Positions 7,679 to 40,669 of a stretch of DNA of 64,000 nt are shown piece by piece. A program made the translations under genes and the position numbers. The notes under the pieces are model-generated. The model had not been told where the DNA came from. It ran no database searches and was given only the letters and a program-made list of their open reading frames with translations. Origin of the DNA: Kiritimatiellia bacterium (GTDB lineage: Bacteria; Verrucomicrobiota; Kiritimatiellia; JAAZAB01); NCBI GenBank assembly GCA_040767085.1, contig JAXGPF010000003.1, positions 480,001-544,000 on the forward strand, in the 5' to 3' direction. The number at the start of each line of letters is the position of its first letter. Positions within the stretch are counted from its first letter, which is position 1.

Positions 7679-8722
7679 ATATTTTTTAAAGAACGCCGTG
7701 GATTTATTCCCGCCCCAGGCATGAGGGCCGGGATGGAGATCGAGTTCCAGGCGGTCGCACGCGCCCGCGGCGCGATAAATGGCCTTCAACCGCTGAAAAC
7801 ACTGCATGGCCGTGTCAATTTTGAAGCAGGCGTCATTGGCGCCGATATCAACCAACAACGGGCGCGGCGCCAGCAGCCCCTGCAGGTCGGGCAGATTGAC
7901 CAGCTTGAACAGTCCCGGGGCCACCTGCATGCCGCAGTAATTGATGTCGCGGATGCCGAACGCCTCCCACAAGTCGCTGTAACAAATGATTTCCGCGGCT
8001 TGGAAACGCGCGTCGCAGAGCGCCATCCAGAGCGCCATCGTGCCGCCGCCGCTCAATCCCATGACGCCCAGGCGCCGGCCGTCCACCTGGGGCAGGCCGG
8101 CGACAAAGTCGGTGGCGGCCCGGCCGTGCGCCACGTTGATAGCGAGGGAAGTTGTGCCCAGCATGGTGGCGTGCAGGTAGTAGAGGTTGCACCAGTCGCG
8201 GCCGCCGGCCACCGCCAGGTGGTTGGGCTTGCGGGCGTCGTTGCGTTCGCCAAATCCGATCCAATCCAGGGAGTAGGTGACAAACCCCTGCTGCGCCATC
8301 ACTTCCCCGTAATTATAGCGGCTATTGGCGATGGCCTGGCGCAGATCGGGATCGGAATCGTTGCCCATGACCGGCTCCTTGCCGTGGGGGCCATGGCCAT
8401 GGCTGCACAGGATGGCCGGACGTTTTTCGCGTTTTTTCAGGCCCTGCGGCAGGTTGACCAGCACCGTGGCCGCCAGGTGTTTTTGGACATCAATGATCCA
8501 TTTCTGCCGGACCAGGCCCTTGTCCTCCCACTGCGCCACCAAGGTCGGATTTAATTTCACCCGCCGCGGAAAATCACCCAGCGTCCCCAGGACCTGCGGA
8601 AGGGCGTGCTTGCGCCAGGCGCGGAAATCATCCCGGGTCCGGCCGCGGAAAGCGCACGCCGGCCGGTGTTCCGCAGCCCACGCGGCGAACATTTTCTGCG
8701 GGCTTAAATTACGCGCATGCAT
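7670..8722 (-). CDS. Alpha/beta hydrolase (dienelactone hydrolase/esterase-like); last codons supplied by the IS
   Basis: HGHG, GFGER, nucleophile elbow GLSGGG, LAPRPL, C-terminal His (PGPHAW). Start chosen at MHARN. Confidence 0.85.
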   Translation of the reverse strand: MHARNLSPQKMFAAWAAEHRPACAFRGRTRDDFRAWRKHALPQVLGTLGDFPRRVKLNPTLVAQWEDKGLVRQKWIIDVQKHLAATVLVNLPQGLKKREKRPAILCSHGHGPHGKEPVMGNDSDPDLRQAIANSRYNYGEVMAQQGFVTYSLDWIGFGERNDARKPNHLAVAGGRDWCNLYYLHATMLGTTSLAINVAHGRAATDFVAGLPQVDGRRLGVMGLSGGGTMALWMALCDARFQAAEIICYSDLWEAFGIRDINYCGMQVAPGLFKLVNLPDLQGLLAPRPLLVDIGANDACFKIDTAMQCFQRLKAIYRAAGACDRLELDLHPGPHAWGGNKSTAFFKKYGS

Positions 8723-22700: not shown

Positions 22701-23090
22701 TCATTCCGCGCTTCCGCCGAGGTAGCGTTCTCCCGCGGCGACAGCCCGGACCGCAGGAATCAACTCTTCGGCGGCGCGGTGCTTGGAAACAAAGCCGAGC
22801 GCACCGGCGTGCAGCACTGCGCGCACCAGGGCCGCACCGGCATGATTGGAAAGCGCCAGGATGCGTGTTTCCGGGCGCTCCGCCAAAATGACAGCCGTGG
22901 CATTGATACCATTCATCCCCGGCAACATGACATCCATAACCACGACATCGGGGCGGTATTGCCTGGCGGCCTCAATCCCGGCTTCCGCCGACCCGACATC
23001 CGCCACGACCAACAGATCCGGTTCCTGGCCAAGCATGCGCTTGACCTGCTCGCGAATCGGAACATGATCGTCCACCAATAAAATTTTCAT
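22701..23090 (-). CDS. Stand-alone receiver-domain response regulator (NarL-type REC, no HTH)
   Basis: LLVDDH, VVVMDVMLPGMNGI, LALS, GFVSK; ends after ~129 aa. Confidence 0.9.
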   Translation of the reverse strand: MKILLVDDHVPIREQVKRMLGQEPDLLVVADVGSAEAGIEAARQYRPDVVVMDVMLPGMNGINATAVILAERPETRILALSNHAGAALVRAVLHAGALGFVSKHRAAEELIPAVRAVAAGERYLGGSAE

Positions 23091-23215
23091 TTGTCCCAAC
23101 TTTCGCCATCACGCGCACGGCGGCGCCGGCATACCCCGAGATTCATCCGGCGCCGGCCGATCCAAGGGCCGCCGCCGCCGGCCCGGCATCGCGGCGGGCA
23201 CAAGCGCTGCCCGGC

Positions 23216-23872
23216 TCAATTTTCCACCGCCGTGAGTCCTTCGCGGATCGCGTATTTCGTCAGTTCCGCCACGCTATGCAGGTTGAGTTTCTCCATGATA
23301 TTGTGGCGATGGGTCTCGACGGTTTTAACGCTGACCTCGATCGCGCCGGCGATATCCTTAGTGCTCCGGCCCTCGGCGATCATTTGCAACACTTCGCGCT
23401 CCCGGTCGGAGAGCACGACAAAAGCGGGGGCCTTGCTCATGGGCTGGGATAGTTCGACGTACGCATCCACCACGCCGCGCGCCACCCCGGAGCTGAGATA
23501 TTTCTTGCCGGCCATCACTTCACGGATGGCGCGCACCAGTTCTTCGCAGGCGGTTTGCTTGAGAATATAAGCCGACGCGCCGGCCGCAAACATCTCGCGC
23601 ACAAAGCGCTGATTCGCATGCCCCGAAAGAGCCACCACCTTTAGGTTGGGATTGGTTTTGACGATCTTGCGCGTCGCATCGATGCCGTTCAAATCCGGCA
23701 TCGCGACGTCCATGACCACAACATGGGCGCCAGACTTGCGGGCCAGGTCCACGACGGCCATCCCGTCCGCGGCCGTGCCGACCACCGTCATCCCCCGCTC
23801 CTTCTCGATCATGGCCTGCAAACCCTCGCGCATCATTTGATGGTCGTCTGCCAGCAAAATTCGGATTTCCAT
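23216..23872 (-). CDS. NarL/FixJ-family response regulator (REC + LuxR HTH)
   Basis: LLADDH, MDVAMPDLNGI, LSDREREVLQMIAEG..TKDIA..VSVKTVETHR. Confidence 0.95.
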   Translation of the reverse strand: MEIRILLADDHQMMREGLQAMIEKERGMTVVGTAADGMAVVDLARKSGAHVVVMDVAMPDLNGIDATRKIVKTNPNLKVVALSGHANQRFVREMFAAGASAYILKQTACEELVRAIREVMAGKKYLSSGVARGVVDAYVELSQPMSKAPAFVVLSDREREVLQMIAEGRSTKDIAGAIEVSVKTVETHRHNIMEKLNLHSVAELTKYAIREGLTAVEN

Positions 23873-24349
23873 GCGCAACTCCGTTAATATCCTTTTCCCT
23901 AACTTTTAAATTATGACGCGGATGCCTTAAAACTGCAAGTTAATACCACGCAACCCGTCAAAACTCCATGATTTTCCACGGCCGCGGCGCGCCGGGAATA
24001 TTGCCGAAAGAACACTCCGATTCGTTGTTTTAATGGTAGGACAAACCAATCGCCCCGGGTATCGGGGAAACCCCTGGAACCACCTGCTAAAAACCTTAGC
24101 GGGCTGGGGGCGCGCCAACATTTCAAATTTTCCCCCGATGACCAGCTTCCGGCAGCTTGGCAGGTTTCAAGCCGGTGAAGATCGCGTAAAGCGCCGGCAA
24201 CGGCGGAAATAATGATTGACATTCATTTCAAAAACGCTGAAATTGCCAAAAAGCAAGGAGCATAAAATTTCATCCGGGAATTGGCGGCAGGCATGAACCA
24301 TGCCGCAAATCCGGCATGGCGCCGGGCCGCCCGCGCCCAAGGCAAACAA

Positions 24350-25837
24350 ATGAATATTCTGCTGATCTACCCGGAATTCCCGGACACGTTCTGGAGTTTC
24401 AAACACGCGCTGGCGTTCGTCGGCAAGCGGGCGGCGTTGCCGCCGCTGGGACTGCTGACCGTCGCCGCCATGCTGCCGCGGGAATGGTCCCAGCGGCTGG
24501 TGGACGCCAATGTGCGGAAACTGGCCAAAGCGGACCTGGCCTGGGCCGACTGCGCGTTCATCAGCGCCATGGGCGTCCAACGCGCATCGGCCCGGCGGAT
24601 CATCAGCCAGTGCCGCGAAGCGGGATTGCGGATCGTGGCCGGCGGGCCGCTGTTTCAAACCGCCAGCGAGCAGATCGCCGCCGTGGACCATTTCGTATTG
24701 AACGAGGCGGAACTGACACTGCCGCTTTTCCTGCGCGACCTGGCGCAAGGGCAGCCGCGGCGGGTCTATGCCTCCGACCGGTTTGCCGACCTGCAACAAA
24801 CCCCCTTGCCGCGTTGGGATTTGCTGGAGATCAAACGTTATGGCTGCATGAGCCTTCAATTCTCGCGCGGCTGCCCGTATAACTGCGATTTCTGCAATGT
24901 CACCGCCCTGCTCGGACGCCGTGTCCGCATGAAATCGGCGGCGCAAATCGTCGCCGAATTGGACGGCATCTACCGGCGCGGCTGGCGCGGCGATGTGTTT
25001 TTCGTGGACGACAATTTCATCGGCAACCGGGTCTTCCTGAAGGCGCAACTCCTGCCGGCCCTGATCGCGTGGCGGCGGCGCAAGACCGGGGTGCTTTTTT
25101 TCACCGAGGCTTCGATCAATCTGGCCGATGACCCGGAGTTGATGGATATGATGGTTGCGGCCGGATTCAACAAGGTGTTTATCGGGATCGAGACCCCGGA
25201 CGAAGCCAGCCTGGCCGAGTGCAGCAAACTGCAGAACAAGCATCGTAATCTCGTGGAGGATGTGAAGCGCATCCAGCGGGCCGGGCTGCAGGTGCAGGGC
25301 GGATTCATCGTGGGATTCGACCACGACCGCCCTTCGATTTTCCAGCGCCAGATTGACTTCATTCAGAAGAGCGGCATTGTGACCGCCATGGTCGGCCTGC
25401 TGCAAGCCCCGCCGGGCACACGGCTTTACGAGCGGATGAAATGCGCCGGCCGGCTGCGGGGGGAATCGTCCGGCGACAACGTGGACGGCACAACCAACAT
25501 TGTCCCGGTGATGAACCTTGAAATGCTGCGCGCGGGCTACCAGAGCATTCTGCGGCACATCTACTCCCCGGAGCACTACTACGCGCGGATCAAGACCTTT
25601 CTCCGCGAATACACCCCGCCCCGGCGCCGCGGCCTCCCCCGGTTCTCCCACCTGCTCGCGCTGGCGCGCTCCTTCTACCGGCTGGGGATCGTGGGCCAGG
25701 AACGGCTGTACTACTGGAAACTCCTGCTTTGGACGCAATTCCGGCGGCCCCGGCTCATCCCCGAAGCCGTGATTCTGGCCATCTACGGGCGCCACTTCCG
25801 CAAGGTCTGCGAGCCGCTGGCGCAAAACCGCGACTAG
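24350..25837 (+). CDS. B12-binding radical SAM protein (DUF4070-type)
   Basis: YPEFPDTFWSF, PPLGLLTVA, SRGCPYNCDFC (CxxxCxxC), VDDNFIG, FIGIETP, GFIVGFD. Confidence 0.92.
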   Translation: MNILLIYPEFPDTFWSFKHALAFVGKRAALPPLGLLTVAAMLPREWSQRLVDANVRKLAKADLAWADCAFISAMGVQRASARRIISQCREAGLRIVAGGPLFQTASEQIAAVDHFVLNEAELTLPLFLRDLAQGQPRRVYASDRFADLQQTPLPRWDLLEIKRYGCMSLQFSRGCPYNCDFCNVTALLGRRVRMKSAAQIVAELDGIYRRGWRGDVFFVDDNFIGNRVFLKAQLLPALIAWRRRKTGVLFFTEASINLADDPELMDMMVAAGFNKVFIGIETPDEASLAECSKLQNKHRNLVEDVKRIQRAGLQVQGGFIVGFDHDRPSIFQRQIDFIQKSGIVTAMVGLLQAPPGTRLYERMKCAGRLRGESSGDNVDGTTNIVPVMNLEMLRAGYQSILRHIYSPEHYYARIKTFLREYTPPRRRGLPRFSHLLALARSFYRLGIVGQERLYYWKLLLWTQFRRPRLIPEAVILAIYGRHFRKVCEPLAQNRD

Positions 25838-25865: not shown

Positions 25866-26381
25866 TCATTCCACGACCAGATGTTCGGCCCGGAATGCGC
25901 CGATTTCCACCGCCACACGATCGCCGGACTGGATGCTGGCGCCCGGATTGGCAAACAGGATGACGTAAATCCGGCCCGCTTCCGGCCGGACCGCCGTCGA
26001 ACGCAGCGTTCCCATCTTGGGCATCTTGGGCACCTTATGCCGTTCACCCGTGGCCTCGTTAATCAACCATGCCGCCTGCGCGCTATCGGTCAGTGCCGCC
26101 GCTTTATCGGGATCGAGCACCCGGTAACGGAAGTCGAGGATATGCCCCTGGGCCGACAGCCGCAGGCTTTCAACACGCATGCCCCACCGTTCCGCCAAGT
26201 CGGCCGCCGCCGCGCTTGACAGGATGGTGGTTGACCGAGCGTGGTTGGCCGCCGCATCCGGCGGCGGCGGGCGGGCGGACGGCAGTGGCGCCACGCATCC
26301 GACCGTCAGCATAAGCATCAAAACCGACGACGACGCCCGGAAAGGTAGACGAAGATGATGGTTAACGACCATGGGGATCAT
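25866..26381 (-). CDS. Hypothetical lipoprotein, last gene of the exported cupredoxin operon
   Basis: Hydrophobic stretch ending LTVGC (lipobox-like); beta-rich body (LDFRYRVLDP...VPKMPKMGTLR); start overlaps the upstream stop. Confidence 0.7.
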   Translation of the reverse strand: MIPMVVNHHLRLPFRASSSVLMLMLTVGCVAPLPSARPPPPDAAANHARSTTILSSAAAADLAERWGMRVESLRLSAQGHILDFRYRVLDPDKAAALTDSAQAAWLINEATGERHKVPKMPKMGTLRSTAVRPEAGRIYVILFANPGASIQSGDRVAVEIGAFRAEHLVVE

Positions 26382-27703
26382 GGCAAATCAACTTCAACTT
26401 TGTAGACCCGCACCCGGCCAGGCGGAGTATTGGTATCCGTTAAGGTCGTCACATTGTCGGCGCCAGGTTCAAGCCCGGTCGCGGGCTCCCATGGTCCGCC
26501 GCCCGGCAGGAGCTGATTGCGGGAAAACAAGCGGTAGCTGCGCCCGGCCGAGGTGTCACCCACCTGCACCTGTTTTCCCCCGCCATTCACGGCAATACCG
26601 GCTATGCGCACATACGACTGCCCATCCAGCGGTTTGGTGTCCGCTACATATTCCTGCAGGTTGGAAAACCCGTCGCCATCCGCATCGGCATCCGGCACGC
26701 CATTGGTATAACCGCCGAACCAGGTCTCCTCCCAGGCATCCGGCAAACCGTTGGCATTGGAATCCAGCGGTTTCGGCGGATTGCTCACCGCGCGACGGTC
26801 ATACCAGGTCAGCGCCGGCAAGGCCGGATTGGCGACCAGCACATCGACGGTCTTGCGCGGCGGCAACATGACGCTGTACTGCCATTTTCGGAACGCGTAA
26901 GGGAACCCGTCCTCGGCCACGATCTGGCCATAGGCGTTAGCAAGCACGGGCATGCGGAGCCGGGACCCCGCATTGATCATGCGGAACAGCACCCGTTCGC
27001 CATCCGCCGCCGCGGTTGTCCAGACGCCATTGGTGCGGTCCTCGCCGTTCAACAGGTAATACCCGGCCTGGTAGTCCATCGTGCTGGAAACCATCCGGCC
27101 GGGGCCGAAGTTGTCATGGGAAACCGCTTGCGTGAGCCGCGGTTCGATTTCGGAATAGAACAGCAAAACCGCGCGGTCATACACCACGTTCGAATAGGCC
27201 TGCCCGGGCTGATAATCTTGAATCACCGCGCCGTAAAGGCCCATGGAGCATTGGACGGCCGGATGGGACCCGCTGTGATACAAATATGTCCCGGGCCGGA
27301 TGCCGGTCCAGACGTAATCCACCGGAGCGTTATTGCCTGGCGCCGTTTCCAGCGCATAAGCGACCGCCCGGCCGGCGCCGTTGCGCACCGGCGCCTGACC
27401 GGTAGCCAGGGGTTGGCCCGGAATCACCAGCGAAACGGGCTCCGGCAGATCGTTATCCAGGTGGATGGTCAAAACCGTGTCGCCCGGGGGCACCGTTAAA
27501 ACCGGGCCTGGCACGGTTACGGCGCCATCCCGGCTGGCAAAACCGGTATCCCGCGCAAATCCCCATTGCGCCATCCGCCCGCCGTTGTTGGGGAGCGCAT
27601 TGGTCACCGGCGCCGCCCGTAGAAAAAATTCCGCACCTTGAACGGATGCCGCCATCCCGAGCATCAGGACTGCGCCCCATCCGCCGCTGAGTATGTTTTT
27701 CAT
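26378..27703 (-). CDS. Two-domain cupredoxin/multicopper-oxidase-like protein 'C' (copper ligands largely absent) with a C-terminal Ca-binding/sorting-like module
   Basis: Signal peptide; VPGPVL, PVSLVIPGQ, RPGTYLYHSGSH..MGLYG, YLLNG, AEDG; tail DSNANGLPDAWE..DADGDG..QEY. Confidence 0.8.
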   Translation of the reverse strand: MKNILSGGWGAVLMLGMAASVQGAEFFLRAAPVTNALPNNGGRMAQWGFARDTGFASRDGAVTVPGPVLTVPPGDTVLTIHLDNDLPEPVSLVIPGQPLATGQAPVRNGAGRAVAYALETAPGNNAPVDYVWTGIRPGTYLYHSGSHPAVQCSMGLYGAVIQDYQPGQAYSNVVYDRAVLLFYSEIEPRLTQAVSHDNFGPGRMVSSTMDYQAGYYLLNGEDRTNGVWTTAAADGERVLFRMINAGSRLRMPVLANAYGQIVAEDGFPYAFRKWQYSVMLPPRKTVDVLVANPALPALTWYDRRAVSNPPKPLDSNANGLPDAWEETWFGGYTNGVPDADADGDGFSNLQEYVADTKPLDGQSYVRIAGIAVNGGGKQVQVGDTSAGRSYRLFSRNQLLPGGGPWEPATGLEPGADNVTTLTDTNTPPGRVRVYKVEVDLP

Positions 27704-27758
27704 TAAAGTCCATCCTTCCTGATATTTTCCTGGCAACATTAAATTGCACCGCACCGCA

Positions 27759-29042
27759 TTAATGCATGGGCATACTGTTGGTTGTGGGCGGCATTACCAT
27801 CATCATGGTTGACATGCCGCCGGGGAACACATTGTTGTTCACGATCTCTTTTTCGTTGTGCGAATGCCACATGAACATGAAGGCGCCGTGCGGGTTAAGC
27901 CCTTCGTGGGCGGGCGGCAGCATGCCCATCCCCCCCAGGAAAGGACTGCCGCTATAATGCCCGCCGTAGGTCAAGTCCATGTCGCTCGGCAGGATGACGG
28001 GAAACGGCTTGCCGTGATCGGGGGCATATTCATGGGGCTGCATGGGCTCGTTGGTGCTGGTATGCCCGTAAATATCCCATCCCAATTTGGCGCCGGTCCA
28101 CTCGAAAACCGCATCCGTCGTCTGCCCGGGCGCCACGGTAATCGTGAATTCCGATCCGGCCAGATCCGGCCCGGAAACTCCCGGCTGGCTTTCCAGCATA
28201 CGCCCGTCACGCGCCAGGATGGCGGCATTATTCCCATGGAAATGGAAGGGGTGCGCATCACGGCCGGCGCCCACCAGCCGCATGAGGAGTTTTTCGCCCG
28301 GCAGCATTGCGGGTTGGCAATCATAGGGCTGGTGCGGCAGCCACGGCGCGAACGCCGGCAGCATGGTGTCCGGCGAGCAGCGTCCATTGATAAACCAATA
28401 CACGGGCCAGAAAGCCGTCATATCCGCCCGGGCCGGCCGGCCCGCTTCGATCGCCGCATGCACATCGGGATCAATCTCGGTCAGCAAGAACAGATATTCC
28501 TGGTCGAAAACGGTAGCCGCATGGTCATACGCCTGCGTACTCACGGCCGGCCGAACGATCAAAGCGCCGACTAAGCCCATCTCGACCTGCAGGTCCTGGC
28601 GCGTTCCGCTCTGGTAAAGATAGGTTCCGGGCTGGTGGGCCGTGAAATGGTATGATACCGTGCCGCCATTCGGTGGCGCTTCCCGGGTCAGGGCGCCGGC
28701 CGCTCCGCCCGCCGCGGTGACGCCGACCTGCCCGGGGAAAACCATGGACACGGGCGTCGTCAAGGTGTTGCGCAGATTGATTTGGACGCTGGCGCCCTGG
28801 CGCACGATCAGGGTCGGGCCGGGATATTGCATGGCGCCGGATCCGACCGCAAACCCCCACATGTAAATCGAAGCGCCGTCGGGCGTCAGGATATGCCCGT
28901 CGCGGGCCGTCAGTTCAACCACGCCGCCATCGGCCACCGCCAGGCCGTCAATCCAATGCCGCGCGGCGGAGGCCGGGTTGAGGGCGAGTGCCAGCAGCCC
29001 TGCCGTGCAGATCGCCAAATGCGCTGTTTGGTTATATCTCAT
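27759..29042 (-). CDS. Two-domain cupredoxin/multicopper-oxidase-like protein 'B' (His ligands only in domain 2, no T1 Cys)
   Basis: Signal peptide; YPGPTL, PVSMVFPGQ, GTYLYQSG; domain 2 HPFHFHG and WHSHNE; Met-rich tail. Confidence 0.85.
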   Translation of the reverse strand: MRYNQTAHLAICTAGLLALALNPASAARHWIDGLAVADGGVVELTARDGHILTPDGASIYMWGFAVGSGAMQYPGPTLIVRQGASVQINLRNTLTTPVSMVFPGQVGVTAAGGAAGALTREAPPNGGTVSYHFTAHQPGTYLYQSGTRQDLQVEMGLVGALIVRPAVSTQAYDHAATVFDQEYLFLLTEIDPDVHAAIEAGRPARADMTAFWPVYWFINGRCSPDTMLPAFAPWLPHQPYDCQPAMLPGEKLLMRLVGAGRDAHPFHFHGNNAAILARDGRMLESQPGVSGPDLAGSEFTITVAPGQTTDAVFEWTGAKLGWDIYGHTSTNEPMQPHEYAPDHGKPFPVILPSDMDLTYGGHYSGSPFLGGMGMLPPAHEGLNPHGAFMFMWHSHNEKEIVNNNVFPGGMSTMMMVMPPTTNSMPMH

Positions 29043-29131
29043 CTCGCGTTTCCTTCCTTATGGCCTGATTATACCGCCCGCCGCCGCCCATCCACGGACC
29101 GGGTAAGTTCGGGATGCAAGGCGTTGGGCAA

Positions 29132-31654
29132 TCACTGAATCACTATCTCGGTCATCATTCCGCCGTAATCTTCCGCCCCGTTGCAAAGGTCTTCCACGTC
29201 GGTGGAATACAACATATAGGTTCCAACCGGCACCCCGGCTGTGTCCAGGATGGCATCACAGGCTTCGCCGCCGCCCAAAGTGACCGACATGGTCCGGTAA
29301 TAGAGGTTGGCGCCGAGCAGCGGCCCGGCGCCATCCGGGTCGGAACCGCGCAGCAGCCGGGCGGAGCGGCCGACGACGAGCATGGGCAGGCCGAGCACCG
29401 TTACGGTATGATACTTGACGGTATCCAGGCTCGAGAGCCGCAGCAGGATTTTCTGGCCTTGTTTGGCGACAATCAAGGCCGGCAGCTTTTGGGCGTCAAA
29501 GCCATTGACATTGGCGATATAACCCGGGTTGATGGTGTCCGGATACCCGCGTCCGTTGATCCAGGGATAATCGTCCTTCATCATGGAAAACGACAACGGC
29601 TGGACGTCGATGCTCTGGTCGTGAAATCTGCTGTCGAACCCGCCGAGTTGCAGGAGGTAATCGACGTCGTAATGCGTTGACCCGTCGCCGTCGTTATACG
29701 CATACCGGTACCCGTTGGAATGGACGAAGCCGCCGCCCAGCACGGTTCCGTCGGGCAGGTTGTTTTGAATCGGATCCACGGACACATTTCCCAGCATCCC
29801 CATTTGCATATGTTCGGTGGCTTCCACGTGGCAGTGGTACATGAACGTGCCGGGCTCAACGATCTCATAGTAATACGTCAGCGTGCCGCCCATGTTGATG
29901 GCGATGGACCCCATCGGCTCGCCGTCAAAGATCGTCGCCGCATTGGGGAAGCCATGGAAGTGCACGGTATGCGGATCGAACAAGTCGGGACGCATCAGCA
30001 TGCCCACGTTGCTCAGGCGCAGGAAGACGCGCTGCCCTTCCTTGAACCGCAGGGTCGGCCCGGATAATTCCGCCGCCAGCATGCCGGCCATCATTTTCCG
30101 GTCCGGCGGGATGCCGGTAAGGTCCGAGAAACCGAAGCAATAGAAATCGCGTCCGTCGCCGCCCTTGATAAATCCATCGCCCGCCCCCAGGTGAACGTTG
30201 ACATAGTCGTTGCTGACGTTGCCGTCGCCGTCCGTGTCAATGCCGTCCAGGTCAGGCACGTAATCGGCCGGGACGCCGAAATATGCGCTGCTCACGTAAT
30301 TACCCACCGCCGCCCCGACAACCAGGCCATTGCTGTTGCCGAACGAGAAATGTATCCCGGCCCAGAGCCGGGAATCGGCGGCTTCCCGCGCCGCCTGCCC
30401 AAAACCGGTATACATCCGGTTGGTGGACATCATGTTGTAAGGCCGGACGGTAAACGCCATGGCATCCGTGCCGAAAAAATTTGACAACACGGCGGCCGCC
30501 GCCGCGCTGAAAAGGCTGTGCGCCGACACGTACTCGGGAAAACGGGGCGTATTGGTGACATACGGAACCCAGTTGGCATCGGCCGCGGTCAAAGGATTGC
30601 CGTCGGTTTCGGCCGCCCGGATTGCCGTAATGGGCCGCCAGGCGTTGTAATGGTATTTGGCGTCCCAGGCGCTGATGCCGGCGTCCGCCAAAGCCACATT
30701 GAGCTGCGCAAACAGGCGCGCGCTATCGGCCAGCCCCAGATTGGTGGCAACCGACCGGGCGATTTCATTCCACCGCCCGACAGTCGTCGCCGTCCCGGGC
30801 ATATCCACCCAGAACCAGACGATTTTGGGCTGCTCGGCATTGGTCCAGACCACGTTGGTCGAATACTGCCTGACTTCTTCCAGGGCGGCGGCATACTCGG
30901 CGCCCGCCAGCGGCGGCGGCGGCGGCGGGCGGAATTGGCCGCCACCCGTCATGGCAAACGGCATGACCATGGCCCAGTGGGGCATCATGGCCGGCTGATA
31001 GTCCGGGAAAGTCGGCTGCCAATCCCCGGCGTTGGTGCCCGGAACATAGGGCGTCATATTGGTGGACATCGCGGACATGTCATCCGCCCGCATGGCCACG
31101 ATTTGCCGGCCCACGTAGTTTCCGAGCACCATCCCGTTGGTACGGGCCTGGGCATCCGGCTCCGCCGCCAGCGAGGCGGCCAGGGCGGCGTCCAGGGCCG
31201 CGATGTTGTTGGTATAGAGCGCGGTCAGGACGGCATGCGCGGCGGCGGCGGCGGCGGCCGGGGTGGAACAAGGTTGCCGGGGGGTGACCGACACCATGTA
31301 GGCCGCGCGCGACCGGTCAATGGAATTGACCGCATCATACATGGCGGCATGGGTCATGGCCAGCGACCGGGACGCCGTAATGGCCATCTGTTGATTGCCG
31401 GCAATCAGCGACACCGCGATGACATTCCAGTTCGAGACCACATCCGCGCCAGCCGCGGTTACCAGCATTCCGGCCGCTACGGCCATGCGCGCCAGCCTGG
31501 CGGCGGGCGTTGCTGAAACACGCGCCTGGACAGGCGCGCGCCACACGCGTCCGAACCGCCGCCCTGCCCCGCGGCCGGCAGCAGGCGCCGGCCAGACATG
31601 CTTTAAAATACCGCTAACGGCATTGCGCGTGTGCATATTCATCCCTATGTTCAT
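29132..31654 (-). CDS. Fusion: vanadium-haloperoxidase/PAP2 domain + two-domain multicopper-oxidase-like module 'A' (T1 site in domain 1)
   Basis: KYHYNAWRP, PEYVSAHS, SRLWAGIHF, then PHTVHFHG and YHCHVEATEHMQM. GGAGG RBS and ATGA overlap at 31651-31654. Confidence 0.88.
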   Translation of the reverse strand: MNIGMNMHTRNAVSGILKHVWPAPAAGRGAGRRFGRVWRAPVQARVSATPAARLARMAVAAGMLVTAAGADVVSNWNVIAVSLIAGNQQMAITASRSLAMTHAAMYDAVNSIDRSRAAYMVSVTPRQPCSTPAAAAAAAHAVLTALYTNNIAALDAALAASLAAEPDAQARTNGMVLGNYVGRQIVAMRADDMSAMSTNMTPYVPGTNAGDWQPTFPDYQPAMMPHWAMVMPFAMTGGGQFRPPPPPPLAGAEYAAALEEVRQYSTNVVWTNAEQPKIVWFWVDMPGTATTVGRWNEIARSVATNLGLADSARLFAQLNVALADAGISAWDAKYHYNAWRPITAIRAAETDGNPLTAADANWVPYVTNTPRFPEYVSAHSLFSAAAAAVLSNFFGTDAMAFTVRPYNMMSTNRMYTGFGQAAREAADSRLWAGIHFSFGNSNGLVVGAAVGNYVSSAYFGVPADYVPDLDGIDTDGDGNVSNDYVNVHLGAGDGFIKGGDGRDFYCFGFSDLTGIPPDRKMMAGMLAAELSGPTLRFKEGQRVFLRLSNVGMLMRPDLFDPHTVHFHGFPNAATIFDGEPMGSIAINMGGTLTYYYEIVEPGTFMYHCHVEATEHMQMGMLGNVSVDPIQNNLPDGTVLGGGFVHSNGYRYAYNDGDGSTHYDVDYLLQLGGFDSRFHDQSIDVQPLSFSMMKDDYPWINGRGYPDTINPGYIANVNGFDAQKLPALIVAKQGQKILLRLSSLDTVKYHTVTVLGLPMLVVGRSARLLRGSDPDGAGPLLGANLYYRTMSVTLGGGEACDAILDTAGVPVGTYMLYSTDVEDLCNGAEDYGGMMTEIVIQ

Positions 31655-32648
31655 GGATTAACCTCCGCGTTTTCGGATTGATCCAATTCGATCCGATAAA
31701 ACAGCCGATCCGGCAAATCCGGAAGATTGTCCACCCGGTTCAACGGTTGGTCGGCCGGCAAATGTTCCATGACGGGTACATAGCCGCCGCTCTCGATATC
31801 CGCGGTACGGGTGATATCATACGCCTTGCCCCAGACACTTTGCCATTGGAGCCGGATACCATCCCCCCCGCGCTCAACGGCGGTAATCCGCAGCAGCGAT
31901 TCCGCGTCGCGCGGATCGGTTCCGGCATAATATTCATCCAGGTCGCGGAATCCGTCGCCATCCGCGTCCGAGACAGCCGTCACGACAAGCCCGAACGCTC
32001 TTTCCCAGTAATCCGGCGCGCGGTTGCCGTTGGCATCCACATACTCGTCGGCGCCAATATCGGCGGCCGCGTCCATCGGCCGCGGCTCGCCGTCATAATC
32101 CAGGGCCAGCGCCGGAAAATCCCCGATCAACCGGCCGCCGCCCTGGCCGATGGCGGGCGAAAACTCCGTCAGGTGATAATCGCCACGCAAGCCGATCGGA
32201 TGCATTTTCACCGAGATACTGTTGCCGCCTTCGTCCAGGACGGTGGCCGACTGCAAGGAATTGACAAAGCCGGCCGCGAAGCGCGGCGCGGCGGACAGGT
32301 TGGAGGCGTCATAGCCCGCGGTATCGGTCAGCAGGCAATCGCGCGGATGCAATACCCATCCCGGGCCGTCGGCCACGTGCAAATCCCAATAAGGCTGCGC
32401 GGGATTGGTGGCCAGGCCGCCGGCGCCGCCATGCATGGATGCGTCGTTGTAGAACGACCGGTTGCGCCAGATAATATTATCCTCCAGCACCGGGTCGGCA
32501 TGGAATTGGCCGGCGGCATTGGTCAACGCCGGGCTGTGCGCATGGGCCACCAGCCCGGCGCCCTGCGGGACCGAGTTCAACGCGCCCGGCGGAAAGGCCA
32601 GTTCCGCGGTGGCGGTGCTGTCATTATTGGCGATGGTATTGTTGATAA

Positions 32649-34182
32649 GGCTCCTAACCAGAATTTGTGGGTAAAAAACAGGTTTTAAAGTTTAAGAAGT
32701 TCTCCAAGCAATGGCGCCAAAAGATGGTGGAGTTATTAACAGCCTGCCGCTTTGGGCGTTTGGCGGCCCCGCAGCAGCCTGATTAATAACTCCTGATTGG
32801 CGCGATGGCGGAACGGAGATAAAGCGGCGGCAAAAAAATAGGCTGGCCTTTCCGTAATCCATTGCGTATGCAATGGGTGAACACAAAAAAAGGAGGACCA
32901 GCCCAAGGTGAAACTTAAAACAATTTTGAATCGTTTGCAACCTTTGAAACGTTTTATTTATCAGGAAACTTGTATGGTTTTGGATCGTCGCGGCCAATGG
33001 AAAGTGGATATAAGCATTCGTCCGCATCGCCAACGCGCGGCATGCTGCTCGCGTTGCGGGCGACCGCTGGCGACATACGACACTCTGCCTGAACGGATAT
33101 GGGCGTTTGTGCCCATTTTGAATGTGCCGGCTTTTTTGCATTATAGTCCGCGCCGGGTAAATTGCCCCGAACATGGCGTGGTGGTGGAAGCGCTGCCTTG
33201 GAGCGATGGCAAACGACCCTACAGCAAGGCGCTGATGCTTTTTTTGGGGAACTGGGCGCGGAGGTTGTCCTGGAAAGAGACGGCGCTGATTTTCAAAGTC
33301 AGTTGGCAGGCGGTTTATCGGTCGGTCGAGTGGATGGTGGAATGGGGCTTGGCGCACCGGGAATTGGCCAATATAACGGCGATTGGTGTTGATGAACTCC
33401 ACGTAGGCAACGGTAAAAAGAGCAAGAACTATCTGACCTTGATCTATCAGATTGATGCGCAATGCCGCCGATTGCTCTGGGTCGGCCAAACCCGCCGGGC
33501 GGCCGCGCTGCGTAAAGGGTTGCAATCTTTGGGAAAACCCGTGCTGGCCGGCATTCGACATATATGTAGCGATATGTGGCGACCTTATCTGAAAGTCATT
33601 GCTGCGAGCCTCAGCCACGGTTGCCACATGATTGACCGCTTCCATGTCGTGCAAACCTTGAATGCCGCCGTGGACGAGGTCCGGCGCCGGGATATGGCGG
33701 CGATGACAGCGCGTCCGGCGGCCAAGCAAAAACTCAAGAAAATGCGCTGGACCTTGCTGCGCCGCAAAACCCGCGTGCGCGGCAAAGCTCGCGAAATGCT
33801 TGATCGGATATTGGGCACAAGACTGCAAACCGGCCGCGCCTATTTGTTCAAGGAAAGCTTTCAGCATTTTTGGAGCTATCACAGCCCAACCTGGGCGCGT
33901 AATTATCTCCAGGCATGGGTCAAGCGCGCCTGTCGTAGCCGCATTGCGCCAATCATTAAGGCGGCTAAAACCATTGCTAAACACGAGGAGCTGCTTTTGA
34001 ACTGGATCAGAGCCAGAAACGAGGTTTTTACTGGCGCAACCGAGGGCTTGAACAATAAAGCTCGAGTGGTTACCAAACGATCTTATGGCTTCAGAACTTT
34101 TCATGGCGCGGAAATGGCGCTATATCATACCCTTGGGCAATTGCCCGAACCGGTAATCACCCACAAATTCTGGTGAGGAAAC
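32649..34182 (+). mobile_element. ISL3-family insertion sequence, copy 2 (1534 bp)
   Basis: Same terminal IRs as copy 1; 8-bp target duplication GTTGATAA at 32641-32648 and 34183-34190; all ORF translations identical to copy 1. Confidence 0.95.
32908..34176 (+). CDS. ISL3-family transposase
   Basis: Translation identical to 6151-7419; GTG start with AGGAGG RBS. Confidence 0.95.
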   Translation: MKLKTILNRLQPLKRFIYQETCMVLDRRGQWKVDISIRPHRQRAACCSRCGRPLATYDTLPERIWAFVPILNVPAFLHYSPRRVNCPEHGVVVEALPWSDGKRPYSKALMLFLGNWARRLSWKETALIFKVSWQAVYRSVEWMVEWGLAHRELANITAIGVDELHVGNGKKSKNYLTLIYQIDAQCRRLLWVGQTRRAAALRKGLQSLGKPVLAGIRHICSDMWRPYLKVIAASLSHGCHMIDRFHVVQTLNAAVDEVRRRDMAAMTARPAAKQKLKKMRWTLLRRKTRVRGKAREMLDRILGTRLQTGRAYLFKESFQHFWSYHSPTWARNYLQAWVKRACRSRIAPIIKAAKTIAKHEELLLNWIRARNEVFTGATEGLNNKARVVTKRSYGFRTFHGAEMALYHTLGQLPEPVITHKFW

Positions 34183-37100
34183 GTTGATAATATAGCACCT
34201 CGCCGCATCCTGCAGCGATACGCCGCCGCCGGCATAGCCGGCAACATTATTAACGATGATGTTATTGAAGAGATTCAGGGCATGCCACAGATTGGTCTGG
34301 CCCGGGCTGGCCTGGACATCCTGGCCGTTGAAATGCGCGGCCCGAATGCCGCCGCCATGCTGGCCGCCCGCAAGATTGCCCTGGATCAGGTTGTTCCGCA
34401 CGGTGATGGTTCCGGCGCCGGGAGTAACCAGGCCCACCGGCGGCGCTTCACCCGCCAGGTAGAGGCCGCCGCCCGCGCCGCCAATATTGGCGGCATAAAA
34501 CACTTCGTTGGCCACAATCCGGTTCCCGACAATCAGGCCGTTGGTGCTCAACCCTTCATGGCAGATACCGGCGCCATTGCCGCGCGTCAGGTTGCCGACC
34601 ACCGTGTTGTTGGTGATCGTGTAATTGGCCGAGCCGGCAAACACGGCGATGCCGCCGCCGCCGGTGATGCCGGCGTTTTTCAGCACCATGTTGTCATGGA
34701 TGACAATCCCGTCATTATCCGCGGGCAGGCCGGTATCGGGTATGCCCAGCGCGATGCCGCCGGCGAATTGGCCCTGATTGCCCTGAATCCGGTTATTACC
34801 GATGCGCAGACCGTGAATAGCACCGGGAACATGAATGCCGCCGCCCATCAGCGAGCCGTAAATCGTGAACCCGTCAATGCGCGCTTGGTTGCCGGACGCG
34901 AAAGGATGCCCGGCGACGTCGCCCAGCACCAGCACACCCGGACACTCGCTGGCGGCAAACGGATCGGCGCCCGGCGTGCCGAGCAGTTCCTGCACCTTGG
35001 TATGCCACGCGGGAATGCGGTCGCTCGGAACCGGATTGGCATTGATGATCGTCGAAGGCGCGCCGGCGCCCTGCAGCCGGACAGGTTTCCAGAGGATGAC
35101 GTTTTCGTCATACACGCCGGGGTGCACAAGAATCAGGTCGCCGGCCGCGGCGGCATCCACGGCATCCTGGATCGGATGCGCCGGATAACCGGCCGGATAT
35201 ACATGGCGCACGGCCGCGCCGCTTTCGAACGTCGTTAAAGTTACGCCCATGGGCGAAAGCCGTCCGTTATCCCCGCGCCGGACCAGCAGTTGCCCGCTGG
35301 GGGCGCCCGCCGGAACACGCGCCTCGATCGAACCATCGCTCCACGACAACACCGTCAGCGGAACCTGTCCGACCGTCACTTGCCCGGGCACGCCGCCGAA
35401 TCCATAGTCGCGGGTGATATACGGCGGCAGGTTCGATGTCGTCAGGTAATAGTCGGGGTTGGGAACCATCGAGGGCCCGACGGAGACGATCGTTAATACG
35501 CCGGTGGAACTGGCGGCGAGGGCGCCGCCGGCCGGCCCGGCGACGGAGTGGATGATCGGGGTGCGATCCGGCGCCTCAACATCCAGCTTGCGATACCGGT
35601 CGCCGACGAACGCCGCCAGGGGGACAATCGGCGTATCGAGATAGGTGGTCATCGCCGGATAATATTGGAAGGTCCAGGGAGTCTGGCTGTAATTGGGATC
35701 GTAAAAAGGATCCACGATCCGCATACCAGGATGGTTCGGATCCGGCATGGTGGGCTTGTTGATGACCAGGGTCAACATGCTGGGTGACACCCCGCTGGGC
35801 GAGGGAACGTTAACCGTAATCGTGGATGGGAGCAGCGCATTGTAACCGCCGAACTCGTCCGTATAAACGCGCAAGATTTCGTGGCCGGCATAATCCTCAA
35901 AAGCCACCGGCAGCCAGGCCGGCGCGGCTTTCTCGCCATAAACCGGGCTGGTTGGATCGAATTCCGCGGCAAGATCGTTGTTGACGAAGCCGACGGCGCG
36001 CGCCGCTTTGGGGACCTCGGTAAAAAGAAAGAAATTGACGCCCGGATTCCCACCCTCCGCGAGTTTAACCTGCTTGCGGTCGGGACCCCGCAAGGTCCGG
36101 CCGGCCAGCGGCGCCGGCGTCCCGGGAAACAGGGTGAGTTCCGGCGGCACGACATAAGGATCGCCCACGCAAAGCGGCGTTGCCAATGGCAGGGCAGTCT
36201 TGGCCGGGGTATAGTTATCACCGTAATCCACGTTTTTATCCTGGGATTTGAAATGAAGGTAGCCCGGCGGCGCGGCCGCCTCCACAATATACGCGCCCGG
36301 GGGCAGTCCTTCCACTTCAGACCCGGCAGAATCGGCCATGCCGCCTGGAAAATAAGAAACAAAGGCATAGCCGCCGTTAAACACGCCCGGGCGGACTTGA
36401 TTCCAGGTCCCATAACCGTCGAATCCCGGCACAACCCGTTGCCCATGGATCACCGGCGCATTGGTCATGATGCTGCCCTCCGGCGGGCTGTCATCCCAAC
36501 TGTCCGTCTGCGTAATTTGCAGCGCGTCGCCGGGATCGAAAACCCCGTTGCTATTGCGATCCACGTCCTCCAAACCCTTGGCGCCGCCGGCCTGCCACTC
36601 GAAAGGATAATTATCCACATCGGCCAGGGTGGCCCGGCCATCCTGATCGCAGTCGTCAATGACGCCATCCTCGTCGCCATCGCCGTAAAGCGCCACTTGC
36701 ACACGCGGGATTCCGGGTTCCCACGGTTCCGCCGCCGCCTCCTGGGGATCGTTTTCGGCGCGGGTGGTGTTGTAATGGACAATCCCGGAAATTCCACCGT
36801 TCTCGCCGGCGGCATAGTCCGTCTTGCCCCAGTCAATGATATTGTTCTGGTTAAGAAACAGCATGATGGCCTCGGTCAATACCGGGCCGGTTTCCGTCCG
36901 CGACAGGTTGTTGCCGGTGTTGGGATTGACGATCGGCTGGCCGTAATCGGGGGAATTGGTGTCCATGTTGACCTGGGGTTGCGGAGTGAGTTTGTTGCGG
37001 GAGGGCATCGCCCACCCGTTGTCGGGCAACACCTCGCCGCCATCGTCAATAATGGCGGTCATACCGGTAGCCTTATACCGCGCAAAATCCACCTCCGCGA

Positions 37101-38586
37101 CCAGCCATTTAAAGAAGGGAAACACCTCGCTGAAGCTGTAATTCCCCGCGCCGTCCGTCACCCGGCCCTGGTAAATGCTGCCGTCGCGGAAACGCAGATT
37201 GACCGCCTGGCCGACAATGCCGGCCTCGCCGGGATCGCGGAATCCATCCTGATCGGCATCGTAGAAAACCGATCCTTCCAGCGCGCCGAACCAGCGGAAA
37301 CACAGGACATTGCCCAGATCGACATCCGCTCCGTTGGTGACCGTGAAGGTGTTGAAGCCGAATAACGCATCCAACGGCATGTCCCAGGTTACCAGTTGAT
37401 AGCTGCCCGGCGGCACGTTGGTGATGACGAACATGCTGTCAGCATCGCAAGGAGCGGCATATAGTCCAACCGGGGCCGCGGCCGGACCGTTCAAACCGAT
37501 CCAGCCGTCCGGTACCGGTTCGCCCGGGAAAAACCCCTGGTTTTTAGGCGGCTTGGAAAAATGGTTGTAAACCAGCCGGCCGCGTACCCGCCCGTTGTCC
37601 GCGGCCGCTGGCGGCGGATTAGTAACCCAAGGAAGGCGCGCGCGATCCACGAACCCGAAGGCCACGTGTTTAAAGCCGCCGCCCCATCCCTCGATAAACA
37701 CCGCCGGCTCGTTGGCCTTAACCCAGGCGTCAATCACCATGGTGCCTTCGATGGTGGAAGTTTGGACCCACCCCGTCCCATCCGGCGGGATGACCGTTAC
37801 GCCATATTTACCCGGCGCCAGAAAACGCACGCGCGCGTCGCCGTTGGCGTCAGTTTGAATCACGCCGCTGCCCATCATATCCACGATATAATTGCCGTCG
37901 GCGTCCATCTCGTACTGGCCGCTGGCGTCCTGCCGGTAGGTGGTGCCCAGCGGATTGCCGAACGCGTCGGCCATCAGCGGCCCGCCCAGATCCGCCAGCA
38001 TGACTTTAAAGTTCGCCAGCCCCGGCTCGCCATTGTCATAAACATTATTGATCGGGTTGTGGTCCTGGAATACCAGGATCGAAATCTGCGCCGTGGGCAC
38101 CGGGTGCCGGTTGACGACAATCGTCGCGCCGGTTTGCCCGTTGGTAATCAGCGCCGAACCCAAGGTGTGCCCGGCATCGGGCAGAACCGAGACCAGGTAG
38201 CGGCCGGCGGACGGGACGGCGATATTGGCGGCCGCGCCGGCCGTATGCCCGGTGCTGACCAAGGGCGCATAGCTTTTATGGATAGCCAGCGAAATGCTGT
38301 CCGCCACCTGGGCGCCCGGAACGGTCACCGTTGTCGTATCCTCCTCCACCAGCCAGCGGAAACCGCTGACGGCGGCGCCGTTTTCGTCCACCACCTGCAA
38401 GGAAAACGCCGCGGATGACAGGGGGATTGCCGCGGAGACCGCCATGCCTAGTATCCAGGCCAGCACCGGCCATGGGCCCGGCATTCGAACAAGCCGATTA
38501 GCATACATATTTAATTCTCCTTAAAAACCGCCGTGACTGCGCCGGCCCAAAGGCCGGGGCCGGCGCCATAGTTCAACAAGGACGGA

Positions 38587-39903
38587 TTACCGCCCCGTGC
38601 CGGCCGGCTTGTAACCAGGGCCGCCCAGCATCACTCCCACTTCGGAGGCGTAATCCTGAGTGGACAGCAAGGCGCGCCAGGCGCCGGTGGTTTCCTGGTA
38701 AAGGGCCGGGTCCGCCAGACCATCCCCGTCGTAATCCGCCGGCGCCGGAATGAAGCCGGGACCGCCAAAGGCCAGGTCGGTGATGATTATGTCATCCAGG
38801 CTGGACAACAAGATCATCCAGGCGCCGGCGCTTTCCTGGTAAAGGGCCGGGTCCGCCAGACCATCCCCGTCGTAATCCGCCGGCACCGGGGTGAACCCGG
38901 GGCCGCCGAATGTGCCGGTGACCTCCTGATAATCATCGGCGGAAAGCATCCCGGCCCAAAGCCCGGTTGCTTCCTGATACAGGGCAGGATCTGTAATGCC
39001 GTCGCCATCGTAATCGGCGGCGACGGCCTTGTAACCGGGGCCGCCGAAGAACTGGGACACTTCCGCATACTGGTCATCCGACAGGCGCGCAGCCCACTGT
39101 CCGGTGAGTTCCTGGTAAACCGCCGGATCGGTCTTGCCGTCGCCGTCGTAATCGCCCTGGGCCGGGAGATAGCCCGGGCCGCCGACTTGGATGTAGCCGA
39201 CCGCCAATATCTGACTGCTCCACAGACCCGTGGATTTCTGGTACACCGCCAGGTCCGTAATCCGGTCGCCATTGTAATCGCCGGGAACCGGCAGATAGTC
39301 CGGGCCGCCAAACAGGCCGCCGGTTTGTTGGTAGCCGCTGCCTGAGAGCAGTAAATACCAGAATCCGGCGCTTTCATTGTAAACCACCAGGTCCATCAGG
39401 CCGTCGCCGTCATAATCGCCGAACGCACTGTCGCCCGCCGCGAAATTGCGCTGATATTCCATGGCCATCAATGTGCGCGGGGAAATATCCACCGTCACCG
39501 GCGTGGTAGCGCCGGGCAGGGGCGAAACCGACATGTCGCCGTAGCGGCTGATAATGGCCGCATCGCACGGGCCGGGGTCGGCGCAATTGTAGACCTTGAT
39601 ATAGAGATAGCCGCCTTCGTATTGGGTTCCGCTCCCGAATGTGCGCGGGCCAAAATTAAAACACCCCTCCAGCGTGGTGTAATCGCGCGCCAGCAGCACG
39701 GGATTCGCATAATTCGTCGCGGGCGTGTAATATAATTCCACCAGCGAGCCGCGCGGCAGATTGGCGTTAGCGCCCGGCGTGGCAGGATCGTTGAGGCCAT
39801 TGGAAGCCCGCCATTGCACGTTGATCCTGGCGGACGCCGCTAACGTCATCATTGCGTAAATCGCCGCGCAAGTGGCGGCGGCCGTTAAGGTTTTACTTTG
39901 CAT
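38587..39903 (-). CDS. Exported protein with C-terminal FG-GAP/VCBS-like repeats
   Basis: Signal peptide (MQSKTL..ASA); six GDYDGDG/ADYDGDG-type..DPAxY repeats separated by GGPG; RBS AGGAG. Confidence 0.85.
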   Translation of the reverse strand: MQSKTLTAAATCAAIYAMMTLAASARINVQWRASNGLNDPATPGANANLPRGSLVELYYTPATNYANPVLLARDYTTLEGCFNFGPRTFGSGTQYEGGYLYIKVYNCADPGPCDAAIISRYGDMSVSPLPGATTPVTVDISPRTLMAMEYQRNFAAGDSAFGDYDGDGLMDLVVYNESAGFWYLLLSGSGYQQTGGLFGGPDYLPVPGDYNGDRITDLAVYQKSTGLWSSQILAVGYIQVGGPGYLPAQGDYDGDGKTDPAVYQELTGQWAARLSDDQYAEVSQFFGGPGYKAVAADYDGDGITDPALYQEATGLWAGMLSADDYQEVTGTFGGPGFTPVPADYDGDGLADPALYQESAGAWMILLSSLDDIIITDLAFGGPGFIPAPADYDGDGLADPALYQETTGAWRALLSTQDYASEVGVMLGGPGYKPAGTGR

Positions 39904-39955
39904 TGTTATTCTCCTGATGGGGTTGAATGATTGACGGCGAGTTGACTTAAAAGCG

Positions 39956-40669
39956 TTAAGGATATGCATATGGTTTAACCTCCGTCCAATTGGTTGCGCC
40001 GCGCGCATTCAGCCAGAATCCCTGGCCGGGCGGCAGCACTAGGTCCCGGCTCCACCTGCCGTTGTGTTTGGCGGAGGTCCGAAAGGCCCCGGCGGTGGAA
40101 TCGAAGACAATGATGGCGCTCCCCTCGGCCGCCGCCGCGGCAAACGCCGTGTTGGTCCAGCGCATCTCCACGGGATAGGCATAGCCGACAAGATTGACTG
40201 CCTCCGGGCCGCAGGCATCCAGGGGCACATCCGCCACCGGGAGCGACCTGGAATCCGGCGCTTCACCAGTCAGATATATTTCGAAGGCGGAATGAACGCT
40301 ATCGCCCACCTGCAGCCAGAACGTTTTGCCCACCAGGTTGTTCGTCCCGGGCCGCCAGGCGCCGAGTAATTTGACTTCCGCGGCATCGCCCGCCGAATAA
40401 TTTTGGATCACGGCATCCCAAAACACGATGGCGGAACCGTTCGGCAGATGCGCCATGATGTCATTCACCGTGACCACCTGCCGATCCAGTGGCATCAGCG
40501 GATAGTGCATCTGGTAGAGCCCGCGCCGGGCTACGGTGAATTTGACATACGCCGCCACATTCCGGCTGGCTACCGCCGGGGGCGTCTGGGCGGAAAGATT
40601 TGTTCCCAGCAACCAGGCCCCGCTGATGGCAAACACCGCCGCGACCCGCAACTCCATCAAACTTTTCAT
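39956..40669 (-). CDS. Hypothetical exported protein, first gene of the operon
   Basis: AAGGAG RBS, signal-peptide-like N-terminus, two internal half-repeats (..GSAIVFWD.. / ..GSAIIVFD..; GKTFWL / GQGFWL). Confidence 0.75.
   Translation of the reverse strand: MKSLMELRVAAVFAISGAWLLGTNLSAQTPPAVASRNVAAYVKFTVARRGLYQMHYPLMPLDRQVVTVNDIMAHLPNGSAIVFWDAVIQNYSAGDAAEVKLLGAWRPGTNNLVGKTFWLQVGDSVHSAFEIYLTGEAPDSRSLPVADVPLDACGPEAVNLVGYAYPVEMRWTNTAFAAAAAEGSAIIVFDSTAGAFRTSAKHNGRWSRDLVLPPGQGFWLNARGATNWTEVKPYAYP

Follow-up and report, generated by a model that had tools for sequence, protein, structure and literature searches.

Copper ligands divided between two neighboring genes suggest a three-protein multicopper oxidase in a Kiritimatiellia bacterium

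What can three adjacent multicopper oxidase (MCO) genes do when no one of them encodes a full set of copper ligands? The question is raised by a gene cassette in a 64,000-nucleotide stretch of DNA from a Kiritimatiellia bacterium (assembly GCA_040767085.1, contig JAXGPF010000003.1, positions 480,001 to 544,000), which we call the window; positions given below are counted from its first letter. The cassette consists of four closely packed genes on the minus strand, here named A, B, C, and D (Table 1). Cu-oxidase Pfam domains are recognized in A (Cu-oxidase_3, 46 bits; Cu-oxidase_2, 41 bits), in B (52.7 and 32.5 bits, respectively), and in C (Cu-oxidase_3, 25.9 bits), all above the cut-offs, and these three genes are separate open reading frames, each of which has a start and a signal peptide of its own, and not parts of one six-domain polypeptide. 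(The C protein probably has 441 amino acids [aa], not 458, because C orthologues begin at its Met18.) As we outline below, the ligands of one copper center appear to be split over two of the genes, with none on the third, and a protein set of this kind would most likely have to assemble into a mixed ring of three proteins in order to function.

Textbook multicopper oxidases are either monomers, with three or six domains, or homotrimers, with two domains per chain. In sequence and fold, A, B, and C are most similar to homotrimers of the latter kind, the type C oxidases, namely, the Nitrosomonas europaea blue copper oxidase (3G5W, the closest solved chain to B, with an E value of 3.9e-10) and the metagenomic laccase mgLAC (2ZWN). 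The likeness extends to the number of cupredoxin domains (two per chain), to an N-terminal type-1 site with the same HCH-x5-H spacing as that of A, and to the HxxHxH and HSH motifs of the C-terminal domain, which B has as well. In a type C enzyme, the trinuclear copper cluster is formed where domain 1 of a chain meets domain 2 of its neighbor. In the relevant passages of a published account, two-domain multicopper oxidases are trimers with a cluster whose ligands come from two protomers, and the type C members have their type-1 site in the N-terminal domain (PMC13151041). Each chain of a type C homotrimer carries both half-sites, and three centers are formed; in contrast, the proteins encoded here could form at most one center, between two gene products, and the third chain is free of ligands.

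Where do the ligands reside? Eight cluster histidines in four HxH motifs are present in the set, four in A and four in B, and no chain has more than four. Read against 3G5W, domain 1 of A holds a predicted type-1 copper site (H562, C608, H615, and M620) and four predicted trinuclear-cluster ligands (H565, H567, H607, and H609). The His-Cys-His motif with an axial Met is found in this domain only and is missing from B and C, and A alone thus has the type-1 site in the N-terminal cupredoxin domain, as type C oxidases do. (The two cupredoxin domains of A together span residues ~484 to 840, behind an N-terminal PAP2-like region.) Domain 1 of B is ligand-free (VSMVFPG, YLYQSG), and domain 2 of B supplies the other four predicted cluster histidines, H267 and H269 (in HPFHFHG) and H393 and H395 (in WHSH), plus H264. 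Ser394 replaces the type-1 Cys in the HSH motif of B, and none of the three Cys residues of the protein lies within an HCH. The C protein has 4 His in total and no HxH, and both of its cupredoxin domains are without copper ligands. In all, four of the six cupredoxin domains have no ligands, and neither A nor B nor C has half-sites in both domains.

A first-pass annotation of this DNA, made by a model from the letters and open reading frames, had proposed that no chain fits a homotrimer and that domain 1 of A together with domain 2 of B would supply one type-1 site and eight cluster histidines. Our reading of the motifs agrees. All 11 of the motifs that it quoted are found where it placed them, WHSH of B included, although the end coordinate of the latter is 27869 and not ~27866, a trivial slip. 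Since the cluster of a two-domain oxidase is bound by two protomers and the half-sites are here on different chains, no chain could build a cluster with further copies of itself. The genome from which the window comes (assembly 95% complete) contains no other Cu-oxidase_3 gene as a possible partner.

Are these proteins perhaps the decaying paralogues of a former oxidase, now structural surface proteins without redox function? All ligands are gone from four of the six domains, and adhesin-like modules are attached to the proteins, as might be expected after such a loss. Decay should not, however, have left the remaining ligands invariant across phyla, nor would one look for genes for an SCO1 copper chaperone and cytochrome c near the cassette, as are seen in some loci; we regard this explanation as extremely unlikely. 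The first-pass annotation had left it to homologous clusters to reveal whether the partition of the ligands is kept, and alignments, database relatives, and loci all indicate that it is. In the alignment of A (78 sequences), H562, H565, H567, H607, C608, H609, H615, and M620 are invariant; the invariant columns of the B alignment (80 sequences) include H264, H267, H269, H393, and H395; and the C alignment (80 sequences) has no invariant His. The best database relatives behave alike. HxxHxH and HCH..H..M are present in 119 of 120 relatives of A, with no HxH beyond the HCH motif in 106 of 119; all 120 relatives of B have HxxHxH and none has HCH; and HCH is likewise absent from all 120 relatives of C, 110 of which have no HxH whatever. 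Within domain 2 of A, H749 is variable and T750 is invariant. The same division of ligands is seen in 9 loci from four lineages and in metagenome loci, where an HCH string occurs somewhere in the sequence of 1 of 80 B orthologues. Because it is conserved, the ligand pattern is far beyond chance. Residues 31 to 33 of B, an IDG stretch, are conserved as well.

Do the three genes also keep company? For the metagenomes, our counts refer to the best 80 of 559 matches to B, and a locus is taken to have room for A if at least 400 bases are available. The first-pass annotation had named B homologs that routinely occur alone as an observation that would speak against its proposal. In fact, B is hardly ever found by itself; A directly precedes it in 70 of the 71 loci with room. 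A C-type gene lies directly downstream of B in 70 of 71 as well (the two exceptions, for A and for C, have <530 bases of room), and D follows C in 47 of 49. A close B orthologue was found in 5 of 40 related genomes, each time with A-like and C-like flanks, and four further related genomes gave only weak matches to B (E of ~1e-6). The order A-B-C-D also occurs in Verrucomicrobia subdivision 3, in Hydrogenedentes, and in an unclassified bacterium.

Given this division, can the two half-sites be brought together? A two-chain structure prediction was made with A(480-840) and B(29-427), each with its own alignment, and with 3 controls. The A+B model reached an ipSAE (interaction prediction score from aligned errors) of 0.92, versus 0.00 for the best control; 58 of 80 solved complexes attain the same mark, as do 2 of 110 mismatched pairs. 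Contacts agree to at least 97% between runs, and the predicted local distance difference test (pLDDT) score of the partner is at least 91. On the B side, the interface residues of the model are confined to domain 2 (61 of 61, with 0 in domain 1); on the A side, 38 of 64 are in domain 1. The histidines at the modeled interface include A565, A567, and A609 and B267, B269, and B395. Like the other checks named in the first-pass annotation that were run, the model favors its proposal: there is an A/B interface that includes histidines of both chains, with A set against domain 2 of B. The contacts with the lowest expected error are those of A584-587 with B356-360, i.e., of a B-specific domain-2 insert on domain 1 of A. 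The alignment of B to 3G5W stops at residue 331 and leaves most of this conserved insert uncovered. In total, we consider the composite A-B copper center to be well supported and its existence likely. Apart from this center, the invariant His and acidic residues of the insert could, to judge from their conservation, make a further metal or substrate site.

The same observations bear on another explanation, in which A, B, and C form separate homo-oligomers without a trinuclear cluster; A would then transfer electrons as a type-1 (blue copper) protein or have a nitrite-reductase-like site, and B and C would have other roles. The solved relatives are indeed homotrimeric, including in the passages cited above (PMC13151041), and B and C are also like copper nitrite reductases in sequence and fold. 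Yet exactly eight cluster histidines, four of A and four of B, are invariant over hundreds of clusters. If the two sets never came together, this would be difficult to account for, and the model brings them to one interface. The strict adjacency of A and B likewise argues against separate assemblies. We judge this explanation to be very unlikely.

If A and B share a center, what does C do? C is predicted with high confidence (pLDDT 90) to fold into two cupredoxin domains, followed by a linker and then a small beta-sandwich at the C terminus. Among solved structures, 2ZWN and 3G5W resemble this fold most closely (E of ~2e-16), and C is clearly paralogous to B (hhalign probability of 100%, E of 5e-52). 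The first-pass annotation had given C a surface-sorting tail. A stretch that resembles TSP3 (it matches part of NF042425 at 31 bits, under the cut-off of 50) and the C-terminal beta-sandwich are present, and to that extent the tail stands, with a putative role in sorting. Across phyla, C bears surface modules that vary: Ig-like, cadherin-like, FG-GAP, dockerin, and TSP3. Natural fusions of B with C are found in metagenome assemblies, namely, P0402 (884 aa) and P0386 (1156 aa), plus a protein from another source that clusters with P0402 (P0513, 886 aa); the linkers of these fusions carry a conserved Ig-like segment. Three further apparent fusions (P0445, P0473, and P0503) were dropped because they contain stretches rich in Arg and Pro, such as frame errors typically produce.

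That C closes a ring is argued mainly on logical grounds, with the natural B-C fusions as independent support. A second A or a second B in the ring would have its four-His half-site facing an empty domain; with C, every interface would be either full (8 histidines) or empty (0). Is it possible, then, that the A-B catalytic pair holds and that C is a copper-free accessory protein (an anchor, an adhesin, or an assembly factor) bound elsewhere, or that a second A or B closes the ring after all? The modeled complex is of the A-B pair only, and the variety of surface modules on C, along with a known C-C tandem, would suit an accessory protein. Against this, C has kept the complete fold of a ring subunit, with both cupredoxin domains, stands beside B in nearly all loci with room, and is sometimes fused to B, and a second A or B would set its half-site opposite ligand-free domains, the mismatch that C avoids. 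We consider an accessory C or a second A or B to be fairly unlikely, and the full 1:1:1 A/B/C ring with C included to be the most coherent reading, toward which we lean with some reserve.

Copper binding, oxidase activity, the substrate, the stoichiometry, and the place of C in the ring are all things that we infer, and we posit the following mechanism. The three different chains would form a ring in the order B-A-C. One of its three interfaces would be catalytic, with domain 1 of A and domain 2 of B enclosing one trinuclear copper cluster. Electrons from the substrate would enter at the type-1 copper and pass over the Cys608-His607/His609 bridge to the cluster, where O2 would be reduced to water. 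The other two interfaces, of A domain 2 with C domain 1 and of C domain 2 with B domain 1, would be ligand-free on both sides and purely structural, and C would close the ring and bear an anchoring tail. The module would be tethered to the giant surface protein encoded by the gene directly upstream of A, here called U, which is fused to A in some phyla, with the lipoprotein D following. As for the substrate, the genes found next to the cassette in other phyla hint that it may be a metal ion outside the cell or some other extracellular electron donor.

Several observations weigh against this mechanism, in whole or in part. A H607 and B H393 are not among the confident contacts of the model, and the pass of the model may partly reflect likeness to the solved homotrimers (3G5W and 2ZWN), a warning that the tool itself gives. 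The linkers of the B-C fusions, at ~180 to 480 aa, are compatible with either ring order or with no ring, and in the order B-A-C, the C terminus of B and the N terminus of C are not neighbors. The C-C tandem (P0465, with a dockerin-like end) is a misfit for a simple 1:1:1 ring. Finally, an ISL3 element lies in the gene directly upstream of A, so that expression in this organism may be impaired.

Can something similar be found among known enzymes? Ceruloplasmin and MnxG of the Bacillus Mnx complex are built as six-domain rings with a single trinuclear cluster at one interface, the other interfaces being structural. These six-domain oxidases are single polypeptides, whereas the six domains considered here are on three chains. 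Ceruloplasmin, moreover, has several type-1 sites, unlike the A/B/C system, which has one. A gene trio of this kind seems to have been noticed before, without explanation, at least in the relevant passages of He et al. 2017, where “three tandem MCO-coding genes” of Sideroxydans lithotrophicus ES-1 are candidate extracellular oxidases of unknown function (PMC5566968). The same passages describe SCO1 and a MofC-like gene (cytochrome c plus a periplasmic-binding domain) with the trio; neither a partition of ligands nor a complex of different chains comes up in them (PMC5566968). The trio probably corresponds to the present cassette; Sideroxydans and Gallionella are among the genera given in annotations of B and C relatives. 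Nmar_1354 of Nitrosopumilus maritimus is likewise a two-domain oxidase trimer with nonidentical chains, called an alpha-alpha-alpha-prime “heterotrimer” in the relevant part of its description (PMC11761707). As described there, its chains come from one gene, differ by a lost extra domain, and each have all ligands, unlike A, B, and C (PMC11761707). We found no description of a heterotrimeric, heteromeric, or split multicopper oxidase in the open-access literature (main texts), and the design would be a new quaternary arrangement for multicopper oxidases.

If true, an obligate heterotrimer with one active center would be a fourth architecture for these enzymes. It has been proposed that six-domain oxidases evolved from two-domain trimers through gene triplication, ligand loss, and fusion. 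This proposal would become testable, because an unfused but already asymmetric stage would exist today. Is the cassette such a stage? Tentatively, and with rather less conviction than for the ring itself, we suggest a widespread obligate three-gene oxidase that is a living intermediate between homotrimeric two-domain and single-chain six-domain enzymes, in which subfunctionalized paralogues may have kept one of three centers and which, mounted on a giant cell-surface protein, may oxidize an extracellular substrate (a metal, for instance Mn(II) or Fe(II), or another electron donor) with O2. In practical terms, expressing one gene of the set alone would probably give an inactive protein.

How widespread is the cassette? 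In a profile search of 1.84 billion representatives, 570 clusters (50% identity) match B at E ≤ 1e-30. The cassette is rare in its own phylum, where 1 of 300 other genomes has it at E ≤ 1e-60, and it is common across other phyla, with hosts that include iron oxidizers and anaerobes from sediments and digesters; this distribution suggests horizontal spread. In current annotations the genes appear as ordinary oxidases or as “manganese” oxidases, and a widespread system is in our view misnamed at present. DNA nearly identical to positions 25866 to 31654 is present in public runs labeled as wastewater, anaerobic-digester, and bioreactor metagenomes. Twenty runs from 13 studies hold it, and two of them contain half or more of the sampled words. 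No RNA run is listed as holding this stretch; the single run labeled RNA-Seq is probably DNA, with a relative and not this strain.

Table 1. Positions in the window of the cassette genes, their domains and motifs, and the upstream gene with its insertion element
Feature	Positions	Strand	Details
Gene A	29132-31654	minus	840 aa; open reading frame with Pfam Cu-oxidase_3, Cu-oxidase_2, PAP2, and VCPO_2nd
PAP2/vanadium-haloperoxidase-like domain of A	30287-30715	minus	aa ~314-456; KYHYNAWRP (aa 333), SAHS (aa 377), SRLWAGIHFSFG (aa ~428-439)
A domain 1	29690-30205	minus	aa ~484-655; predicted type-1 site and four cluster His
A motif PHTVHFHG	29951-29974	minus	domain 1
A motif HCHVEATEHMQM	29801-29836	minus	domain 1
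A domain 2	29135-29689	minus	aa ~656-840; cupredoxin without cluster ligands (YHTVTVLG, YSTD)
A motif YHTVTVLG	29390-29413	minus	domain 2
A motif YSTD	29198-29209	minus	domain 2
Gene B	27759-29042	minus	427 aa; Sec-type signal peptide
B motif VSMVFPG	28731-28751	minus	domain 1
B motif YLYQSG	28605-28622	minus	domain 1
B motif HPFHFHG	28233-28253	minus	domain 2
B-specific domain-2 insert	27960-28079	minus	aa ~322-361; invariant W322, D323, Y325, H327, E338, D342, H343, K345
B motif WHSH	27858-27869	minus	domain 2
Gene C	26378-27754	minus	458-aa open reading frame; probable start Met18 = 27703, giving 441 aa
C motif VSLVIPG	27416-27436	minus	
C motif YHSGSH	27263-27280	minus	
C motif RMPVLA	26939-26956	minus	
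Gene D	25866-26381	minus	171 aa, lipoprotein; fourth cassette gene
Gene U, 3' piece	31651-32645	minus	choice-of-anchor-Q-like stretch, TSP3 repeat, C-like tail; colinear with the intact orthologue of locus L016
ISL3-family insertion sequence	32646-34183	plus	1.5 kb; transposase 32908-34176; Pfam DDE_Tnp_ISL3, E of 1e-60; splits U (blastn versus L016)
Gene U, 5' piece	34184-38508	minus	SdrD B-like, CarboxypepD_reg-like, and right-handed beta-helix/NosD-like regions

The N-terminal domain of A matches PAP2 at 27.8 bits, just over the cut-off of 27.2, and VCPO_2nd at 16.4 bits, under the cut-off of 27. PAP2 proteins are defined by three motifs, KxxxxxxRP, S-G/A-H, and an SRxxxxxHxxxD-like motif. 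Motifs of all three types were found in A by regular expression, and the last one ends in G, not D. This domain occurs in only part of the A family; other members have cadherin-like, beta-helix, alkaline-phosphatase, or dockerin modules in its stead or nothing at all.

Gene U encodes a giant secreted protein. U and A form a single protein of ~1950 aa in three loci (L019, L020, and L021), and U-like giant proteins precede A in three others (L041, L044, and L083). The insertion element that splits U has a second copy in the window, at 6145-7682, which is 99.9% identical. A nearly identical 8699-base contig from a public run joins position 32640 to 34183 without the element, and the 8 letters shared at the joint are probably the target duplication. 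An uninterrupted U allele therefore exists, and the insertion is polymorphic or recent. The ATG of A overlaps the stop of the U piece (31651-31654), and through this overlap the insertion may disturb the expression of A.

At the other end of the cassette, D has a conserved Ig-like beta-sandwich of ~105 aa (model pLDDT 82) and a conserved GC lipobox. It has no Pfam family and no PDB match at E ≤ 0.001, and its Atlas label is “hypothetical protein.” D may serve as a membrane anchor. We also considered D as a copper chaperone and set this idea aside, as D has no conserved His, Cys, or Met.

What surrounds the cassette elsewhere? In a survey of 20 long metagenome loci, with 39 of 78 flanking open reading frames searched against Pfam, a subtilase gene follows D in nine loci (L041, L044, L054, L055, L056, L068, L088, L094, and L100) and a C25 peptidase gene does so in two (L034 and L099). 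An SCO1/SenC copper chaperone is encoded in three (L044, L079, and L088), and proteins with cytochrome c and/or periplasmic-binding domains are encoded in four (L044, L054, L079, and L091). Such neighbors hint that the cassette proteins may be matured by proteolysis, supplied with copper, and served by an electron-transfer partner. The flanking-gene content of these proteobacterial-type loci agrees with the relevant passages of He et al. 2017 (PMC5566968).

In the window, a B12-binding radical SAM protein with DUF4070 is encoded on the plus strand at 24281-25837, convergent to D, and two response regulators are encoded at 22701-23878; neither the regulators nor the radical SAM gene showed a link to the cassette. 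Upstream of U, at 38587-40669, lie genes for an FG-GAP repeat protein (473 aa) and a 237-aa protein, and a similar pair, one protein of 236 aa and one FG-GAP protein of 468 aa, is encoded downstream of D in another locus (L028, 10369-12439). The FG-GAP pair may represent further members of the cassette in this lineage.

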